From Escherichia phage EC128: DNA of 64,000 bases. Position 1 is the stretch's first letter, and every line of letters starts with the position of its first letter. The translations under genes were made by a program, and so were the position numbers. The notes beneath the pieces are model-generated. The model ran no database searches. It was not told the DNA's origin and saw nothing but the letters and a program-made list of their open reading frames with translations. This document shows, piece by piece, positions 2,142-16,891 of the stretch. Location: the sequence record ON210139.1. One strand, given 5' to 3'.

Positions 2142-2838
<697 letters not shown>

Positions 2839-2850
2839 TTTCACAAAGTT

Positions 2851-2888
2851 GTTTACATACTGATGAGGTAGTGATACTATTATCTCAT
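2851..2888 (+). promoter_or_regulatory. early promoter (GTTTAC -35, TGATACTAT -10 region)
   Basis: tttcacaaagttgtttaca motif shared with the promoter at 3217 and others. Confidence 0.55.
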
Positions 2889-2910
2889 CAAAATTAATTA
2901 GGAAAATAAA

Positions 2911-3198
2911 ATGAAAACTTTCAAAGAATTTACTTCTACAACTACCCCGGTTTCTACTATTACTGAAGCTACTCTTACTTCTGAAGTTATTAAAGCAAAT
3001 AAAGGACGAGAAGGTAAACCAATGATTAGTTTAGTTGATAGCGAAGAAATCAAAGGTACTGTTTACCTAGGTGATGGGTGGTCTGCTAAAAAGGATGGTG
3101 CTACAATCGTTATCTCTCCTGCTGAAGAAACTGCGTTGTTTAAAGCTAAACACATTTCTGCGGCACATCTCAAGATTATTGCTAAAAATCTTTTGTAA
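2911..3198 (+). CDS. ipI: internal protein I-like, capsid-targeted
   Basis: 95 aa; N-terminus MKTFKEF...TEA resembles the capsid targeting sequence cleaved after Glu; between 57B and tRNAs. Confidence 0.6.
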   Translation: MKTFKEFTSTTTPVSTITEATLTSEVIKANKGREGKPMISLVDSEEIKGTVYLGDGWSAKKDGATIVISPAEETALFKAKHISAAHLKIIAKNLL

Positions 3199-3216
3199 TA
3201 AATATTTCACAAAGTT

Positions 3217-3254
3217 GTTTACATAGGGTTTTAGTAGTGATACTATTACCCTAT
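3217..3254 (+). promoter_or_regulatory. early promoter
   Basis: Near-duplicate of promoter at 2851 (aatttcacaaagttgtttacata...gtgatactatta). Confidence 0.55.
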
Positions 3255-3274
3255 CAACTACTGAGGAGAATAAA

Positions 3275-3460
3275 ATGAAACGTTGTGAATTAATTCGAAA
3301 TGTTGCTATTGCAATTTCTGCTTCTGCTTTTAGTTTTTCAATGTTTGTTGGATTTATATGTGGATTATTAACTACAGCAGAAAATGTGTTTTCACTTGTA
3401 GTAGCATTTTTAATTGGTTTAATCGCTATCGTTATGGATAAAATTTCTAAAGGTGAATAG
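3275..3460 (+). CDS. small hydrophobic membrane protein
   Basis: 61 aa, GAGGAG RBS, two predicted TM helices. Confidence 0.5.
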   Translation: MKRCELIRNVAIAISASAFSFSMFVGFICGLLTTAENVFSLVVAFLIGLIAIVMDKISKGE

Positions 3461-3842
3461 AATGTATAAAGTGTATGCGGATTATCAGGCTAATCCATCT
3501 GAAAAGCCAGGTTGTCAAATTGGATGGGCTCATGATACTTTGCTTGAAGCAGTAGATGCTGCCCAAAAATTGGGATATAAATATGTAGAGATTGTTCAAC
3601 CGTCAGGAAAAGTTATTACTCTTGAAGAGTTCAATAATATTAAACCAAACTTTTTACTTTTTGCAGGTGATAATTATTATCCTCGTGGTGGATATGCTGA
3701 TTTAATCGCGAAAGCCGCTACCGAAGATGAACTTCGTGATATTATTAAAGAAAATGAAAATAAACCGATGTATGGTTCTAATCGTTTTGACTGGTGGCAA
3801 ATTGTAAATGCCCATACGCATACTATTGTTGATGAAGGTTGA
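3453..3842 (+). CDS. hypothetical protein
   Basis: 129-aa ORF, start overlaps upstream stop (translational coupling). Confidence 0.5.
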   Translation: MNRMYKVYADYQANPSEKPGCQIGWAHDTLLEAVDAAQKLGYKYVEIVQPSGKVITLEEFNNIKPNFLLFAGDNYYPRGGYADLIAKAATEDELRDIIKENENKPMYGSNRFDWWQIVNAHTHTIVDEG

Positions 3843-4132
3843 TAATGATTCTTTATGCGAAAGTATCATCCATTGAAAATGGATATAAATATGATCAAGA
3901 AGCAGCTAAAGCCTTGATTGATGATTATGGCATTTTAACATATTTTGAAGTTGAAAAGGTTTACATTGACCGTTCATCTTCTCAAGTTAAATTAGTAAAG
4001 GAAGACCGTAAATTTAATACAGTAAATTTTGATTTCTTTATTGAAACAGAAAAAGGTCCTCTTGAATATGATATTTTCAAGAATCCTTTGGGTCTTGAAT
4101 GCATCGTAAATATGTATTATCATAAATGGTAA
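3839..4132 (+). CDS. hypothetical protein
   Basis: 97-aa ORF coupled to upstream gene (ATGA overlap). Confidence 0.5.
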   Translation: MIMILYAKVSSIENGYKYDQEAAKALIDDYGILTYFEVEKVYIDRSSSQVKLVKEDRKFNTVNFDFFIETEKGPLEYDIFKNPLGLECIVNMYYHKW

Positions 4133-4229
4133 ATATGCTTTAAGAATTATTTGTTATTATTAACTCATATCGCACTGATTAATACCCTCTATCATCAAGG
4201 GTTCTTGCTTAAGAGCCTTTGTTAATAAT

Positions 4230-4302
4230 TGGGAATTAGCCAAGTTGGTAAGGCACTGGATTTTGATTCCAGGATGCAAAGGTTCGAGTCCTTTATTCCC
4301 AG
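4230..4302 (+). tRNA. tRNA-Gln (anticodon UUG)
   Basis: Cloverleaf: acceptor TGGGAAT/ATTCCCA, anticodon loop TTTTGAT, T-loop TTCGAGT. Confidence 0.85.
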
Positions 4303-4303
4303 C

Positions 4304-4390
4304 GCGAGAATGGTCAAATTGGTAAAGGCACAGCACTTAAAATGCTGCGGAATGATTTCCTTGTGGGTTCGAGTCCCACTTCTCGCACCA
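4304..4390 (+). tRNA. tRNA-Leu (anticodon UAA), long variable arm, CCA encoded
   Basis: Acceptor GCGAGAA/TTCTCGC, anticodon loop CTTAAAA, T-loop TTCGAGT, 3' ACCA. Confidence 0.85.
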
Positions 4391-12301: not shown

Positions 12302-12664
12302 ATGAAAGCATATCAAATTCTTGAAGGCACACATAAAGGTACTATTTATTTTGAAGATGGTATTCAAGCACGAATTATCGTTTCTAAAACCTTTAAAGAG
12401 GACTCTTTTGTAGACCCAGAAATTTTCTATGGTTTGCATGCCCGTGAAATTGAAATTGAGCAACAGCCTACAGTTAAAATTGAAGGTGGTCAACACCTGA
12501 ACGTTAACGTTCTGCGTCGTGAAACTCTGGAAGATGCAGTTAAGCATCCGGAAAAATATCCGCAGCTGACCATCCGTGTATCCGGTTATGCAGTTCGCTT
12601 TAACTCTCTGACTCCGGAACAGCAGCGCGACGTTATCGCTCGTACCTTTACCGAGAGTTTGTAA
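12302..12664 (+). CDS. grcA: autonomous glycyl-radical cofactor, GrcA/YfiD-like
   Basis: C-terminal ...[29 protein letters not shown] matches the glycyl-radical domain of E. coli YfiD/pyruvate formate-lyase; 3' half uses host-like CTG/CGT/CCG codons. Confidence 0.85.
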
Positions 12665-12885
12665 TGGCAAAGATAATTATTGAAGGTTCTGAAGATGTGC
12701 TAAATGCTTTCGCCGAATGGTTTAGTAATTCAGGCGAACAGCAATTTAACGAAGCATGGAACATGGGTGATATTAATGGAATTTATCCTACTACAGAAAT
12801 TTCTGTTCAGGGATATGGCATTCATGAACCTATTCGTTTAGTTGAATACGATTTATGTACTGGTGAGGAAGTCAAATATGATTGA
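12664..12885 (+). CDS. hypothetical small protein
   Basis: 73 aa, TAATG coupling to grcA-like gene. Confidence 0.5.
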   Translation: MAKIIIEGSEDVLNAFAEWFSNSGEQQFNEAWNMGDINGIYPTTEISVQGYGIHEPIRLVEYDLCTGEEVKYD

Positions 12886-13144
12886 AGATATTAAAGGTTA
12901 TAAGCCACATACTAACGAAAAAATCGGTAAAGTAAATGCTATTAAAGACGCTGAAGTTCGTTTAGGACTTATCTTTGACGCTTTATACGATGAATTCTGG
13001 GAAGCACTAGATAATTGCGAAGACTACGAATTCGCAAAGAATTATGCTGAAAGCCTCGATCAGCTAACTATTGCTAAAACGAAACTCAAAGAAGCTAGTA
13101 TGTGGGCTTGTCGCGCGGTATTCCAACCAGAGGAAAAATATTAA
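12878..13144 (+). CDS. hypothetical small protein
   Basis: 88 aa from ATG 12878 with GAGGAAG RBS. Confidence 0.5.
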
Positions 13145-13422
13145 TGGCTCAATTAAGCGCAGGGTTTGGTTATGAGTATTATACTGCCCCTCGTCGTGTA
13201 TCTGTTGCTCCTAAGAAAATTCAAAGTCTTGATGATTTCCAGGAAGTAATTCGTAACGCTTTCCAGGACTATGCGCGTTATCTTAAAGAAGATTCACAGG
13301 ACTGTCTCGAAGAAGATGAAATTGCTTATTATGAGCAGCGTCTTGAACAGCTTAAAAACCTACATGAGGTTCGTGCAGAAGTTACAAAGTCTATGAATAA
13401 ATTGATTAGATTTAAAGAATAA
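13144..13422 (+). CDS. hypothetical small protein
   Basis: 92 aa from ATG 13144 with GAGGAAAAA RBS. Confidence 0.5.
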
Positions 13423-13424
13423 TT

Positions 13425-13462
13425 GTTTACTTTTCCTCTTGACTGTGGTATAATTTTTCTAT
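13425..13462 (+). promoter_or_regulatory. early promoter (GTTTAC, TGGTATAAT)
   Basis: Close match to sigma70-like consensus, upstream of 13482. Confidence 0.6.
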
Positions 13463-13481
13463 CAGTTAAGAGGAGAATAAC

Positions 13482-13943
13482 ATGACTATCAACACAGAAG
13501 TTTTTATCCGTCGAAATAAGCTCCGTCGTCACTTTGAGTCGGAGTTTCGTCAAATTAACAATGAGATTCGTGAGGCATCAAAAGCAGCAGGAGTCTCATC
13601 GTTTCATCTAAAATATTCTCAACATCTTCTTGATCGTGCAATTCAACGGGAGATTGATGAGACATATGTTTTTGAATTATTCCACAAAATAAAAGACCAT
13701 GTTTTAGAAGTTAATGAATTCCTGAGTATGCCTCCGCGTCCTGACATTGACGAGGATTTTATTGATGGGGTTGAATATCGTCCTGGGCGTTTAGAAATCA
13801 CAGATGGAAATCTTTGGCTTGGATTTACAGTTTGTAAACCTAATGCGAAGTTCAAAGACCCGTCACTTCAATGTAGGATGGCCATTATCAACAGTCGTCG
13901 TTTACCAGGAAAGGCTTCTAAAGCAGTAATTAAAACTCAATGA
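13482..13943 (+). CDS. regB: RegB-like endoribonuclease (by size and position)
   Basis: 153 aa, AGGAG RBS, own early promoter; lies between denV and tk as regB does in T4. Confidence 0.5.
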   Translation: MTINTEVFIRRNKLRRHFESEFRQINNEIREASKAAGVSSFHLKYSQHLLDRAIQREIDETYVFELFHKIKDHVLEVNEFLSMPPRPDIDEDFIDGVEYRPGRLEITDGNLWLGFTVCKPNAKFKDPSLQCRMAIINSRRLPGKASKAVIKTQ

Positions 13944-13950
13944 GGTAAGC

Positions 13951-14496
13951 ATGAGAAAAGCACTACTCGCTGGTCTATTGGCCATTTCTATGATGGCACA
14001 TAGCTCCGAGCATACTTTCAGTAATGTCCAACTCGATAACATGCGTTACGCGTATCAATTCGGGGAACAATTTTCCAAGGATGGAAAATATAAAACACAT
14101 AAAAATATCCACAAGAGCGGATTAGGTCATATAATGGCTGCTATTTTATGGCAAGAAAGCTCTGCCGGAGTTAATTTAAAATCTAAACCAAAGCATCATG
14201 CCTACGGAATGTTCCAAAACTATTTGCCGACCATGCGAGCAAGAGTTAAGGAACTTGGTTATAATATGACCGATGCTGAAATAAAAAGAATGTTGAATAA
14301 ACGGTCCAATTCAGCTTCCTGGGCGTACATTGAACTTTCTTATTGGTTAAATATACATAAGGGCGATATAAGAAAAGCAATATCCTCTTATAATTCGGGA
14401 TGGAATGTTAAAGCAGGTTCTAAATATGCTTCTGAAGTCCTAGAAAAGGCTAACTACCTTAAAAATAATAAACTGTTGGAAATAGTAAATGACTAA
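13951..14496 (+). CDS. secreted lytic-transglycosylase-like protein
   Basis: Signal peptide MRKALLAGLLAISMMAHS; motifs WQESS, YGMFQ, SYNSGW typical of SLT domains. Confidence 0.55.
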   Translation: MRKALLAGLLAISMMAHSSEHTFSNVQLDNMRYAYQFGEQFSKDGKYKTHKNIHKSGLGHIMAAILWQESSAGVNLKSKPKHHAYGMFQNYLPTMRARVKELGYNMTDAEIKRMLNKRSNSASWAYIELSYWLNIHKGDIRKAISSYNSGWNVKAGSKYASEVLEKANYLKNNKLLEIVND

Positions 14497-14830
14497 AATT
14501 TTGGTTTTATGTGTAGGATTAATTTCATTTTCTGCGTTAGCAGATATATCATATTCTGAAGTTAGAGAGTATGTAAACCGTACTGCCGCGGATTATTGTG
14601 GGAAAAATAAAGCATGCCAAGCTGAATTTGCGCAGAAATTAATATATGCATATAAAGACGGAGAAAGAGATAAATCAAGCAGATATAAAAATGATACATT
14701 GTTAAAACGATATGCTAAAAAGTGGAATACTTTAGAATGTTCAGTTGCGGAGGAGAAAGATAAAGCCGCTTGTCATTCAATGGTTGACCGTTTGGTAGAT
14801 TCTTATAATCGAGGATTGAGTACTAGATGA
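14489..14830 (+). CDS. secreted Cys-containing small protein
   Basis: 113 aa, signal peptide MTKILVLCVGLISFSALA, 4 Cys; coupled to upstream gene. Confidence 0.5.
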   Translation: MTKILVLCVGLISFSALADISYSEVREYVNRTAADYCGKNKACQAEFAQKLIYAYKDGERDKSSRYKNDTLLKRYAKKWNTLECSVAEEKDKAACHSMVDRLVDSYNRGLSTR

Positions 14831-15306
14831 TTGTAAAATATATCAAGGGCGATATTGTCGCCCTATTTCTTCAAGGTAATATTATTGCGCACGGGTGTAA
14901 CTGTTTTCATACTATGGGTTCAGGTGTAGCGGGTCAATTAGCAAGGGCCTATCCTAAAATTTTAGAAATAGATAAAACCACTACCGAGTACGGTTCTCGT
15001 GATAAATTAGGCGATATGTCTATTGTTTTTAAACATAATCCTACAGGATTTGGTATATGCTATAACCTGTATACACAATACGAACCGGGTCCTAATCTTG
15101 ATTATGGTGCTTTAGTAAACTGCATGATAGAATTAAATCTACAGGCAGAGACTCTTTTGTTTAAACCAGTAATTTACATTCCACGCATAGGTTGTGGTAT
15201 TGCTGGCGGCGATTGGGATAAGGTTTCTAAATTAATCGACATGTTTACTCCTGATATTGATTTGATAGTGGTGGATTATGAAAGTACATTACCCGCATCC
15301 GTTTGA
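14827..15306 (+). CDS. macro-domain (ADP-ribose binding/processing) protein
   Basis: GDI...HGCNCFHTMGSGVAGQLA and PRIGCGIAGG match macro-domain glycine-rich loops; ATGA coupling. Confidence 0.6.
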   Translation: MIVKYIKGDIVALFLQGNIIAHGCNCFHTMGSGVAGQLARAYPKILEIDKTTTEYGSRDKLGDMSIVFKHNPTGFGICYNLYTQYEPGPNLDYGALVNCMIELNLQAETLLFKPVIYIPRIGCGIAGGDWDKVSKLIDMFTPDIDLIVVDYESTLPASV

Positions 15307-15490
15307 TCCTAAAAACAAAGCGGAAATTATTCGTCAATGGGAACGCATTTGCCGTACTAAATGCCCAATTAATAGTCCTCATGATGTAGATAAAGACTAT
15401 ATTGGAACATTCGTTGAATATACCTTTATTGATAGGAAAGGTCGTAAACAACATGTAGAAGAATATTGCTTAAAGGTTACATGGTTATGA
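15278..15490 (+). CDS. hypothetical small protein
   Basis: 70-aa ORF overlapping the macro gene's end. Confidence 0.4.
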   Translation: MKVHYPHPFDPKNKAEIIRQWERICRTKCPINSPHDVDKDYIGTFVEYTFIDRKGRKQHVEEYCLKVTWL

Positions 15491-15693
15491 GCCAAACTAG
15501 TATTCTTAAAAATGCCCATTGTGAAAATTGTAAATGGCCTGTTGTTTTTGCTTTATGTAATGATGAAATGGCCTGTGATTTTGACTATTGGTGCTATTGT
15601 TCTAATAAAGGATGCATCAATCATAAAGGTGAAGGATTTTATTCAGGATTTTATCCTTATCCTGATTTCGTTAAAGAAGGTAAACCAAAATGA
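15487..15693 (+). CDS. Cys-rich small protein (possible zinc binding)
   Basis: CENCKW...CNDEMACDFDYWCYCSNKGC. Confidence 0.4.
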   Translation: MSQTSILKNAHCENCKWPVVFALCNDEMACDFDYWCYCSNKGCINHKGEGFYSGFYPYPDFVKEGKPK

Positions 15694-15863
15694 ATAATTT
15701 TGAGTTACAATATGAAGTGTTACGTGAACTTGATAATTTAATTGAACTCGCTGTTAATAAAGGTTTTGCCATTGGAATTGGTCAAAAAGATACTGATCAT
15801 TTAACTATGGAAATATTTAAGCAAAAACGAATTATTTTAAAACTTCTGGAAATTAATATATGA
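15690..15863 (+). CDS. hypothetical small protein
   Basis: 57 aa, ATGA coupling on both sides. Confidence 0.4.
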   Translation: MNNFELQYEVLRELDNLIELAVNKGFAIGIGQKDTDHLTMEIFKQKRIILKLLEINI

Positions 15864-16045
15864 GTCTGAGCAAAGAACAAAAAGATAAATTGTTTGAGCT
15901 TATCCATGAACTTCTAGATGAGCATACAGAAGTAAACACCTTTTATGATGAATACGGCCCGCTATCTCCCGAACAGCAAGAAGAATTTGCTGACCGGTTT
16001 GATAAGAAAGAAAACGAATTAATAGCTTATGTGAATACGCTTTAA
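15860..16045 (+). CDS. hypothetical acidic small protein
   Basis: 61 aa. Confidence 0.5.
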   Translation: MSLSKEQKDKLFELIHELLDEHTEVNTFYDEYGPLSPEQQEEFADRFDKKENELIAYVNTL

Positions 16046-16054
16046 GAAGGTGAT

Positions 16055-16636
16055 ATGGCGAGTTTAATTTTTACTTATGCGGCAATGAATGCTGGAAAAT
16101 CTGCTTCTCTTTTGACTGCTGCACATAATTATAAAGAACGCGGAATGAGTGTATTAGTTCTTAAGCCTGCTATTGATACTCGCGATTCTGTCTGTGAAGT
16201 CGTTTCTCGCATTGGAATTAAGCAGGAAGCGAATATTATTACGGATGATATGGATATTTTTGAGTTCTATAAATGGGCTGAAGCACAAAAAGATATTCAT
16301 TGTGTATTTGTAGATGAGGCCCAGTTTTTAAAAACTGAACAGGTGCATCAATTAAGCCGAATTGTTGATACATATAATGTTCCTGTTATGGCTTATGGGC
16401 TAAGGACTGATTTCGCTGGAAAATTATTTGAAGGTTCTAAAGAACTTTTAGCGATTGCAGATAAACTTATTGAACTAAAAGCAGTTTGTCATTGCGGCAA
16501 AAAAGCGATTATGACAGCTCGATTAATGGAAGATGGAACACCAGTTAAAGAAGGTAATCAAATCTGTATTGGTGATGAAATTTATGTTTCTTTGTGTAGA
16601 AAACATTGGAATGAATTAACTAAAAAGCTCGGTTAG
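16055..16636 (+). CDS. tk: thymidine kinase
   Basis: 193 aa; P-loop YAAMNAGKSASLL, CVFVDEAQF, C-terminal CHCGKK...C zinc ribbon. Confidence 0.9.
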   Translation: MASLIFTYAAMNAGKSASLLTAAHNYKERGMSVLVLKPAIDTRDSVCEVVSRIGIKQEANIITDDMDIFEFYKWAEAQKDIHCVFVDEAQFLKTEQVHQLSRIVDTYNVPVMAYGLRTDFAGKLFEGSKELLAIADKLIELKAVCHCGKKAIMTARLMEDGTPVKEGNQICIGDEIYVSLCRKHWNELTKKLG

Positions 16637-16645
16637 TGCAAAAGT

Positions 16646-16653
16646 TATAAATA
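16646..16653 (+). promoter_or_regulatory. late promoter TATAAATA
   Basis: Exact motif about 25 nt upstream of 16679. Confidence 0.4.
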
Positions 16654-16678
16654 GGTTTATCTAACTAAAGGGGTATAT

Positions 16679-16891
16679 ATGCTACAATTAACTGAAAAGC
16701 AACTTCGCAATCTTACTGTTCTTCAATTAGATGAAATTCGTAGGGAAGTTGGAAATATCATTTCAGCTTTGCGTCGAGAAGTATCACTCAACCAATCTCC
16801 GGCAGACTATACTAGATTGCGAAATTTTGAAAAATACCTTGATAAAGTTAAGGCCGTGCACCGGCACAAAGTAAATACAGGACAAAAATGA
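16679..16891 (+). CDS. hypothetical small protein
   Basis: 70 aa, AAAGGGG RBS. Confidence 0.5.

Follow-up and report, generated by a model that had tools for sequence, protein, structure and literature searches.

Positions 13,951 to 15,306 of the window, by which is meant the whole 64,000-nucleotide stretch of Escherichia phage EC128 DNA (ON210139.1) analysed here, lie in a Tequatrovirus (T4-like) genome and contain three overlapping ORFs on the + strand, encoding proteins of 181, 113, and 159 amino acids. A Tequatrovirus sequence is 98.8% identical to the window across positions 13400-16700, and the T4 gene order regB-vs.1-vs-tk.4-tk.3...tk-rI.1-rI is reproduced. The ORFs are the orthologues of T4 vs.1 (13951-14496; protein 99% identical to NP_049725), vs (14489-14830; 96% to NP_049724), and tk.4 (14827-15306; 58% to NP_049723). 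The preliminary description had placed all three correctly and missed the names under which they are already known. Translated matches are found in 2084 phage records for Vs.1, in 795 for Vs, and in 2777 for Tk.4, and Pfam gathering scores are passed by SLT (Vs.1) and Macro (Tk.4); the three ORFs are real genes and not chance occurrences. When T4 was sequenced in 1986 they appeared as ORFs 61.4, 60.9, and 60.5. Their assignment to SLT and A1pp goes back to 2003-2006, the 2006 publication citing earlier PSI-BLAST matches (PMC1524935). All three genes are non-essential on E. coli K-12 in LB, and a vs knock-out gives poor plaques on minimal medium.

The genes are tightly packed. A gap of 7 nt, in which GAGG is found, separates the regB stop codon from the vs.1 ATG; the vs.1 stop and the vs ATG overlap by 8 nt (ATGACTAA), and the vs stop and the tk.4 ATG by 4 nt (ATGA), while tk.3 starts 29 nt ahead of the tk.4 stop. 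From the overlaps we infer that vs.1, vs, and tk.4 may be translationally coupled. A candidate sigma-70-like promoter, recognised by its match to the consensus only, is found upstream of regB at 13426-13454 on the + strand (TTTACT-17-TATAAT with an upstream TG, 10/12 matches). A potential -10 element was marked at this site in the 1986 T4 record, and the site is a likely source of a regB-vs.1-vs-tk.4 transcript. The scan that was used returned fewer promoter-like sites in the window than in shuffled sequence. A hairpin at 14846-14864 was considered as a terminator and rejected; its z-score of -1.68 is unremarkable and it lies inside conserved coding sequence.

The predicted exported proteins Vs.1 and Vs

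The vs.1 gene (13951-14496, + strand) encodes a 181-residue precursor in which a signal peptide precedes a divergent SLT/GH23 muramidase domain. The predicted Sec signal peptide (13951-14004, + strand; MRKALLAGLLAISMMAHS / SE) has an n-region charge of +2, a hydrophobic core, and A-H-S at positions -3 to -1, and the AF2 model has low pLDDT at residues 1-20. Signal peptides were called with a home-made heuristic for the n-, h-, and c-regions, which checks that the n-region is positively charged, the h-region hydrophobic, and the residues at -3 and -1 small. These features were found in 31/32 homologues of Vs.1 and 31/35 of Vs, and in one of the 36 macro-domain homologues that served as control.

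Three SLT motifs are present in Vs.1, and all are conserved among 32 homologues reaching down to 41% identity. Glu69-Ser70 (14155-14160, + strand) is the putative catalytic E-S pair, with E69 invariant and S70 kept in at least 90%; a weak hhalign match (E 0.11) pairs it with E478-S479 of E. coli Slt70. Motif II, G86-M-F-Q89 (14206-14217, + strand), has G86, F88, and Q89 invariant and aligns with GLMQ of Slt70, while Y147, N148, and G150 are invariant in motif III, Y147-N-S-G150 (14389-14400, + strand). The proposal made at the outset, of a signal-peptide protein carrying the transglycosylase motifs ES, GMFQ, and YNSG, is borne out by these alignments, the catalytic glutamate included.

The similarity to characterised enzymes is remote. 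Pfam SLT (PF01464) matches Vs.1 with 4.8e-5 and 23.4 bits, which barely exceeds the cut-off of 21.3, and it matches 29 of the 32 homologues, the best with 1.3e-7. A search of PDB sequences with Vs.1 gave no matches, and hhalign against the catalytic domain of Slt70 fell short of significance (E 0.11), with the motifs E-S and GLMQ aligned. The AF2 model of Vs.1 has a pLDDT of 88.5, and its top Foldseek matches are MltD, Slt, a GH23 chitinase, and goose lysozyme at probabilities of 0.99-1.0; the same matches are weak by other measures, with E around 1e-2 (9e-3), TM around 0.5, and 14-19% identity. The literature searched contains no report of an activity of Vs.1, and insertions in vs.1 are tolerated, 46 of its 52 TA sites having been hit. 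On the combined motif and fold evidence Vs.1 would be a Sec-exported, single-domain muramidase of the GH23/SLT type that would cut peptidoglycan glycan strands in the periplasm. Such a predicted exported muramidase of the pre-replicative region is conserved in about 2000 phage genomes.

The overlapping vs gene (14489-14830, + strand; PHROG 1256, 3.7e-39) encodes a 113-residue precursor, predicted to be a four-helix bundle, with four cysteines. Its predicted Sec signal peptide (14489-14542, + strand; MTKILVLCVGLISFSALA / DI) has a hydrophobic core and A-L-A at -3 to -1. The export features of the N-terminus are kept although its sequence varies, and pLDDT is below 50 at residues 1-13. The AF2 model as such has a pLDDT of 84.8 and helices at residues 15-37, 41-61, 68-84, and 89-111. 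The predicted mature protein has 95 residues and a mass of 11.0 kDa. C37, C43, C84, and C95, all located after the signal region, are invariant in 35 homologues. The preliminary description of a secreted protein with four cysteines is in agreement with these predictions. The gene so described is the one annotated as valyl-tRNA synthetase modifier.

All Vs homologues are annotated with PF26829 (ValRS_modifier). Our local copy of Pfam, NCBIfam, and PADLOC gave no credible match for Vs of the window, and Pfam gave none for the 35 homologues either. A search with the Vs model in the fold libraries covered here found no relatives and no fold resembling a lysozyme inhibitor (LprI/DUF1311, Spackle). 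According to Muller and Marchin (1975, 1977), as cited in PMC8076793, Vs binds the host valyl-tRNA ligase. The export features displayed by the whole Vs family fit poorly with a cytoplasmic ValRS target, and the sequence predicts that Vs is exported, with two disulfides or a Cys4 site.

The neighbourhoods of these genes in other phages show which of them tend to stay together. In Acinetobacter phage AB-Navy71 the 108-residue neighbour of the vs.1 homologue aligns with all four Vs cysteines (hhalign E 6.9e-5), and the third gene encodes a different secreted protein and not a macro domain. A vs.1 homologue also adjoins a PF26829 ValRS_modifier gene on a metagenomic contig. Next to the Vs.1 homologues of Cba120- and Felix-O1-like phages there is no vs gene and no macro-domain gene. 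The adjacency of vs.1 and vs is kept in distant T4-like phages, while tk.4 is unlinked to either gene outside Tevenvirinae. A single functional module of three genes is contradicted by the Cba120/Felix-O1-like and AB-Navy71 neighbourhoods, and the cluster originally proposed does not hold as a functional unit, Tk.4-like and Vs.1-like genes being found apart elsewhere.

It is possible, although on balance doubtful, that Vs and Vs.1 act together in the periplasm as a two-part unit, in which an exported, disulfide-stapled Vs would regulate or inhibit Vs.1 or guard the cell wall, and that the ValRS assignment is wrong or secondary. The signal-peptide features conserved in both proteins, the four invariant cysteines, the 8-nt gene overlap, the small predicted size of mature Vs, and the adjacency in distant T4-like phages whose third gene encodes something other than a macro domain are all in favour of such a unit. 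Full-length His-tagged Vs is moreover insoluble in the E. coli cytoplasm (PMC8076793), and there is a precedent in Campylobacter Firehammervirus, where an SLT endolysin is accompanied by a small overlapping inhibitor gene (PMC7692668). T4 itself has a small periplasmic lysozyme inhibitor in Spackle, as described in PMC7650644. However, the reported binding to the valyl-tRNA ligase speaks against the unit, as does the distribution of the two proteins, since Vs.1-like proteins greatly outnumber Vs in phage records and those of Cba120- and Felix-O1-like phages have no adjoining Vs. The four cysteines could equally well bind zinc if Vs stays in the cytoplasm, and the fold search, with the scope given above, revealed no likeness to a known inhibitor. 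If the unit were real, T4-like phages would have in Vs.1-Vs a conserved module that acts on the envelope.

A further alternative, which we regard as unlikely, is that Vs.1 is a signal-peptide endolysin with an auxiliary role, kept restrained after early export and freed when the holin depolarises the membrane, on the pattern of Lys44 of phage fOg44 or of the SLT endolysin that Campylobacter Fletchervirus exports through Sec. The alternative would account for an early exported muramidase that does not lyse the cell, and the Fletchervirus enzyme has the same architecture as Vs.1 at a similar length (188 versus 181 residues; PMC7692668). Against it, the hhalign match to gp111 of Campylobacter phage CPX is not significant beyond the E-S pair (E 0.056, 15 columns), T4 already has the endolysin E and the tail lysozyme gp5, and the insertions in vs.1 are tolerated. 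The homologues in other phage families are moreover found amid DNA-metabolism and rII genes and not amid lysis genes. Two specific counterparts in CPX were considered and rejected: the Vs.1 profile gives no significant match to gp111 that would make it an orthologue of the Fletchervirus endolysin, and gp050, examined as a muramidase counterpart, is a lipoprotein and no muramidase. The roles of Vs.1 and Vs are of interest for the way in which the cell envelope is handled by T4-type phages early in infection, and we consider this a modest lead.

Tk.4 and the proposed reversal of ADP-ribosylation

The tk.4 gene, recently renamed adfM in T4 (for anti-DarT factor Macrodomain), encodes a stand-alone macro domain of 159 residues with no signal peptide (14827-15306, + strand). 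Pfam Macro (PF01661) matches it with 5.8e-8 and 33.1 bits (cut-off 22), residues 22-136 corresponding to positions 2-117 of the 118 in the profile. The identity to T4 Tk.4, 58%, extends over the full length, and the gene has the same position between vs and tk.3. The two differ in the gene body, where a mosaic segment (14866-15327, + strand) displays about 35-80% sliding DNA identity to T4 between flanks of 93-100%. At 95% identity or more, 275 phage records carry the allele of the window and 221 that of the T4 type. The window thereby adds a common second tk.4 allele, found in at least 275 phage records, whose gene body is replaced between near-identical flanks.

The glycine loops that bind ADP-ribose in macro domains are intact (G31-S-G33 and G122-C-G-I-A-G-G128), as the preliminary description of a cytoplasmic macro domain had it, and the other binding residues are also found in the alignments. 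Absence of these residues or of the catalytic glutamate of Vs.1, named in advance as the refuting outcome, was thus not observed. Asn25 (14899-14901, + strand) is invariant among 36 homologues, aligns with HVCN of SCO6735, and is equivalent to its Asn27. Gln84 (15076-15078, + strand), invariant in the same 36, is equivalent to Gln85 of SCO6735; profile alignment places it opposite the glutamine of NMIGQ in both BT1257 and SCO6735, while hhalign places it opposite K80 of the macro domain of Mtb DarG and K84 of TARG1. In SCO6735 activity is almost gone in the N27S mutant, and Q85A is inactive (PMC9411070). The diphosphate-binding loop P-R-I-G-C-G-I-A-G-G-D-W (15181-15216, + strand), with P119, G122, G124, and W130 invariant in the 36 homologues, is almost the same as PRIGCGLAGGTW in SCO6735 and PRIGCGLAGGKW in BT1257.

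The relatives of Tk.4 among PDB sequences are BT1257, SCO6735, TARG1, Poa1p, and DarG. With a Tk.4 profile the values are 1.4e-21 for BT1257, 6.7e-18 for SCO6735, 1e-15 for TARG1, and 2.4e-13 for DarG; Poa1p is matched with 1.5e-9 by the single sequence and 6.3e-14 by the profile. All features of the Gln-type ALC1-like proteins (the Gln, the Asn, and the Gly loop) are present, and by sequence Tk.4 is a cytoplasmic, ALC1-like macro domain that belongs to the SCO6735/BT1257 subtype. It is matched by DarG models in their macro part only (PADLOC 4.5e-7, NCBIfam 1.4e-6). Identification as DarG itself (NF048014) was rejected, as the score is 27.8 bits against an equivalog cut-off of 250 and only positions 2-142 of the 338 in the profile are covered, the C-terminal DarT-binding domain is absent, and Lys80 is replaced by Gln84.

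A phage macro domain that reverses ADP-ribosylation by host defence systems had been suggested for this gene from the sequence, and a defence-countering role has since been shown by genetics for tk.4 of T4. Knocking out the gene makes T4 sensitive to DarTG2, and tk.4 was the single significant T4 gene in a genome-wide screen on DarTG2 (bioRxiv 10.1101/2025.11.20.689424). T4 lacking adfA and adfN retains its resistance to DarTG2 (PMC11825919). The genetic evidence for the anti-DarTG2 role applies to the T4 allele only, with which the allele of the window shares 58% identity. As for the biochemistry, SCO6735 cleaves ADP-ribose linked to thymidine in DNA and counters DarT (PMC9411070), and gp104 of PhiKZ, also named AdfM, strips ADP-ribose off DarT2-modified DNA in vitro (PMC13309987).

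Tk.4 would most likely be an orphan antitoxin, binding the ADP-ribose that host DarT2 puts on thymidine of single-stranded DNA. It would then hydrolyse the thymidine-ADP-ribose bond in phage DNA, and replication would be restored. Gln84, held by Asn25, would position the distal ribose and a water molecule according to the scheme for SCO6735 and not by the lysine chemistry of DarG and TARG1. We infer this enzymology from analogy with SCO6735 and PhiKZ gp104. Because the catalytic lysine of DarG is missing in Tk.4, the mechanism is taken from a single study in which SCO6735 was examined by mutation and molecular dynamics.

The three ADP-ribosyltransferases of T4-type phages may be counted in favour of another role for Tk.4. 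It could mainly reverse ADP-ribosylation of protein or RNA, whether by the phage's own Alt, ModA, and ModB or by host toxins, or it could be an ADP-ribose-1''-phosphate phosphatase; we find either quite improbable. The RefSeq/T4 record does name Tk.4 'phosphatase (A1pp motif)', and Poa1p, the yeast ADP-ribose-1''-phosphate phosphatase, is among its PDB relatives, but it is more distant than BT1257 and SCO6735. SCO6735 also de-ADP-ribosylates a protein substrate (PMC9411070), so other substrates of Tk.4 are possible. However, a genome-wide screen gave no phenotype for T4 tk.4 other than sensitivity to DarTG2, and the gene is non-essential when DarTG2 is absent. CmdTAC, which ADP-ribosylates mRNA, is described as a robust defence against the T-even phages, and the paper describing it makes no mention of tk.4 (PMC11618068).

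The macro-domain question is largely settled by the T4 work: T-even phages have an orphan, DarG-like eraser against DarTG2 beside AdfA and AdfN against DarTG1. That the whole Tk.4 family is of the Gln type and does not have the lysine of DarG is relevant for the design of catalytic mutants and inhibitors. Taken together, the locus very probably consists of three known pre-replicative genes of T4-type phages, encoding an anti-DarTG2 Tk.4, an exported muramidase Vs.1, and a four-helix Vs, which are neighbours and not parts of one system.

Comparison with known systems

Vs.1 has E-S, G-(L/M)-(M/F)-Q, and Y-N-x-G in common with Slt70 of E. coli and with MltD and Slt of P. aeruginosa, and its model points, through weak fold matches, to their lysozyme-like fold. 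Compared with the family-1 transglycosylases it is minimal and only remotely similar, having 163 mature residues, neither superhelical nor LysM modules, and no cysteine. The marginal Pfam score, the non-significant Slt70 alignment, and the absence of a reported activity in the literature searched would also agree with a catalytically dead Vs.1 that only binds peptidoglycan, but this is very improbable given the invariant glutamate, the serine kept in at least 90% of the homologues, the conservation of two further active-site motifs, and the SLT matches of 29 of the 32.

The Fletchervirus endolysin (Lys of F352; gp111 of CPX) resembles Vs.1 in combining a signal peptide with one SLT domain in about 185 residues and in being encoded outside the lysis cassette. 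Sec-dependent export has been shown by experiment for Lys of F352 (PMC7692668), while that of Vs.1 is predicted. The SLT protein is also the main endolysin in Fletchervirus, whereas T4-type phages have endolysin E. Vs of the window, 96% identical to T4 Vs (PF26829) and found in the same position, does not differ from its family.

Tk.4 of the window and T4 AdfM are alike in position, in their full-length alignment, in N25 and Q84, and in the glycine loop; they have 159 and 155 residues, respectively. The gene body is a different allele, and the DarTG2 tests were made with that of T4. The closest solved relatives are SCO6735 of Streptomyces coelicolor (PDB 5E3B) and BT1257 of Bacteroides (2AFC/2FG1), which share with Tk.4 the N..Q catalytic pair and the PRIGCG(L/I)AGG loop. 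These are cellular proteins while Tk.4 is encoded by a phage, and the mobile loop of SCO6735 is longer and carries Lys89 and Lys94. DarG of the DarTG2 systems (Mtb, 5M3I; T. aquaticus, 5M31/5M3E) belongs to the same class of macro domains and presumably has the same substrate. The DarG models cover residues 4-152 of Tk.4, which has 159 residues against about 338 in the profile and a glutamine, Q84, in place of K80. PhiKZ gp104 is, as proposed for Tk.4, an orphan phage macro domain that counters DarTG2 (Cell Rep 2026, PMC13309987). Unlike Tk.4, it belongs to a chimallivirus and enters the phage nucleus by import, and it has been called DarG2-like.

Identity and neighbourhood of the three genes

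The segment 13951-15306 is entirely filled by three ORFs on the + strand of 181, 113 and 159 codons, vs.1 (13951-14496), vs (14489-14830) and tk.4 (14827-15306). As read from the sequence, the vs ATG lies 8 nt ahead of the vs.1 stop, an ATGA is common to the tk.4 start and the vs stop, and tk.3 starts 29 nt ahead of the tk.4 stop. The 3.3 kb in which they lie shares 98.8% identity with Escherichia phage vB_EcoM_JE01 and has matches in 747 phage records, nearly all from Tequatrovirus or relatives. The order regB, vs.1, vs, tk.4, tk.3 ... tk, rI.1, rI is annotated in T4 and a close relative, the encoded proteins share 99% (Vs.1), 96% (Vs) and 58% (Tk.4) identity with those of T4, and a T4 sequence record from 1986 holds the same ORFs as ORF 61.4, 60.9 and 60.5. 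The preliminary description of three ORFs thus holds, and what it describes are named T4 genes. The finding is real and was well read; the genes and domain assignments are already known, and the most interesting prediction is already published.

The vs.4 orthologue (12878-13144) is annotated as the anti-CBASS protein Acb2 in a close relative, and tk.4 (adfM) is found about 1.7 kb downstream of it. This early stretch thus contains at least two counter-defence genes. The vs.6 orthologue (12302-12664) carries the annotation "autonomous glycyl radical cofactor" (GrcA-like), a host-like metabolic spare part that is unusual for an early region. On the other side, tk.3 (15278-15490) encodes a DUF7202 protein (5.5e-38) and the ORF after it (15466-15693) a Cys-rich protein of 75 aa with a "phage zinc binding domain" (7.5e-29); both overlap their neighbours.

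Vs.1 and Vs

The Pfam SLT model matches Vs.1 residues 61-154 (4.8e-5, slightly over the gathering score), and 29 of the 32 family members give the match. Across 32 aligned homologues, reaching down to 41% identity, E69, G86, F88, Q89, Y147, N148 and G150 never vary and S70 hardly does; refutation of the transglycosylase-like reading by loss of the catalytic Glu, as envisaged in the preliminary description, therefore fails. The AlphaFold model is confident (pLDDT 88.5), and its top PDB matches are the lytic transglycosylases MltD and Slt, a GH23 chitinase and goose-type lysozyme, all with weak E-values (about 1e-2) and TM scores around 0.5. E478-S and GLMQ of a verified Slt70 fragment are placed opposite E69-S and GMFQ of Vs.1 in an alignment that lacks statistical significance. 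A charged n-region and a hydrophobic core mark the N-terminus, with A-H-S ahead of residue 19, and such signal-peptide features are found in 31 of 32 homologues versus one of 36 macro-domain controls. The predicted mature protein is basic, has 163 aa and contains no Cys. The SLT similarity of Vs.1 was published in 2006, citing earlier PSI-BLAST results (PMC1524935).

A total of 2084 phage records contain Vs.1-like proteins, among them records from Ackermannviridae and Felixounavirus, in which the genes adjoin gp46/47 or rIIA/rIIB and pnk, not lysis cassettes. T4 vs.1 accepts transposon insertions at 46 of 52 sites. Public labels on the orthologues drift between "endoribonuclease", "RegB", "site-specific RNA endonuclease" and "C-type lysozyme". 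A characterised signal-peptide SLT endolysin of similar size is known from Campylobacter Fletchervirus; its CPX orthologue could not be aligned significantly with the Vs.1 family, so the endolysin is an analogue, not a relative.

The 113-aa Vs belongs to the public family "valyl-tRNA synthetase modifier" (PHROG 1256, PF26829), confined to T4-like phages (795 records), and in public records it is often labelled "valyl-tRNA synthetase" itself. The first ~18 residues vary in sequence while keeping signal-peptide character in 31 of 35 homologues, and C37, C43, C84 and C95 are invariant in all 35. Vs is modelled as a four-helix bundle (pLDDT 84.8, residues 1-13 below 50) with Cys pairs at the turns between helices 1 and 2 and helices 3 and 4. 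From these sequence features Vs is predicted to be exported and disulfide-bonded, with a mass of 11.0 kDa. Such export is at odds with the cytoplasmic target in the literature, as Vs has been reported to bind valyl-tRNA ligase (cited in PMC8076793). Alternatively, the four Cys might form a metal site in a cytoplasmic protein. Full-length tagged Vs was insoluble in E. coli (PMC8076793), and a T4 vs knock-out forms plaques more poorly on minimal medium. No comment on the signal peptide was found in the literature searched, which did not include the original ORF-assignment papers.

The adjacency of vs.1 and vs is more ancient than BLAST results alone would indicate. In AB-Navy71, an Acinetobacter phage of the Twarogvirinae, the gene after the Vs.1 homologue overlaps it by 1 nt and encodes a secreted protein of 108 aa; in the alignment of this protein to the Vs profile (E 6.9e-5) all four Cys coincide. 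On a metagenomic contig a PF26829 protein comes directly after a 41%-identical Vs.1. In neither locus is the third gene a macro domain; in AB-Navy71 (2480-4347) the Vs-like four-Cys protein is followed by a 141-aa protein, a 99-aa ORF and then rI. The 141-aa protein has a hydrophobic, signal-like N-terminus. That Vs.1, a putative exported muramidase, and Vs form a conserved periplasmic pair is conceivable, if rather unlikely.

Divergence around tk.4

DNA identity to T4 is 95-100% across regB, vs.1 and most of vs, with a brief drop to ~82% in the vs signal-peptide codons. The body of tk.4 (14866-15327), a different allele and the first of two mosaic patches, shows only ~35-80% identity between flanks of 93-100%; identity is back to 93-97% in tk.3, lost again at 15500-16040 and regained in tk (97-100%). 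Tk.4 of the type found here has 275 records at 95% protein identity or more and the T4 type 221, and an additional class is 80-90% identical to T4. This pattern is that of a cassette-like exchange of a counter-defence gene.

The first tk.4 codons contain a perfect, GC-rich 8-bp hairpin (14846-14864; AGGGCGAT ATT GTCGCCCT) with a T-rich tract after it, directly before the collapse of T4 identity. Its folding energy is not exceptional (z = -1.68). One public record has a terminator annotated near the macro gene, and in PV390659 the tk.4 CDS begins at an internal start, by which the first 29 codons, including a conserved KGD motif, are lost. In the second mosaic patch (15500-16040) the tk.2/tk.1 region of T4 has been replaced or rearranged, and three ORFs are found there, one of 75 aa (Pfam Phage_zn_bind) and two of 57 and 61 aa.

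Tk.4 and DarTG2

T4 lacking adfA and adfN is still resistant to DarTG2 (PMC11825919). In a transposon screen of T4, tk.4 was the sole DarTG2-specific hit, and a clean knock-out sensitised the phage to DarTG2, upon which the gene was renamed adfM (bioRxiv 10.1101/2025.11.20.689424). PhiKZ gp104, also called AdfM, strips ADP-ribose off DarT2-modified DNA in vitro (PMC13309987), and SCO6735 removes thymidine-linked ADP-ribose from DNA and guards against DarT (PMC9411070). The early proposal that the macro domain reverses ADP-ribosylation by host defence, to be examined on DarTG hosts, therefore agrees with published results for the T4 orthologue.

Pfam Macro matches Tk.4 at 5.8e-8, and when all 1.84 billion representatives were scanned, 6146 relatives came up at E <= 1e-3, the best 150 of which are mostly ~150-170 aa long. 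Profile searches identified the solved relatives BT1257 (1.4e-21), SCO6735 (6.7e-18), TARG1 (1e-15), Poa1p (6e-14) and the DarG proteins of Mtb and Taq (~1e-13); the human TARG1 sequence and that of the macro domain of Mtb DarG, both used for alignment, were confirmed against PDB entries. Of the DarG models, only the macro part matches Tk.4 (PADLOC 4.5e-7; NCBIfam 27.8 bits, with the cut-off at 250). In profile alignments Gln84 of Tk.4 stands opposite Lys80 of DarG and Lys84 of TARG1, and Ala126 opposite Asp125 of TARG1. Membership of the DarG family was rejected, since Tk.4 lacks the C-terminal domain and Lys80 and scores below threshold.

Among 36 homologues there is little or no variation in Gln84, Asn25 and the PRIGCGIAGG loop, and they match NMIGQ, HVCN and PRIGCGLAGG in SCO6735 and BT1257. 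In SCO6735 the Q85A substitution abolished activity and N27S removed nearly all of it (PMC9411070). By analogy, Tk.4 would act like the macro domain of DarG, by means of an active site of the SCO6735 type.
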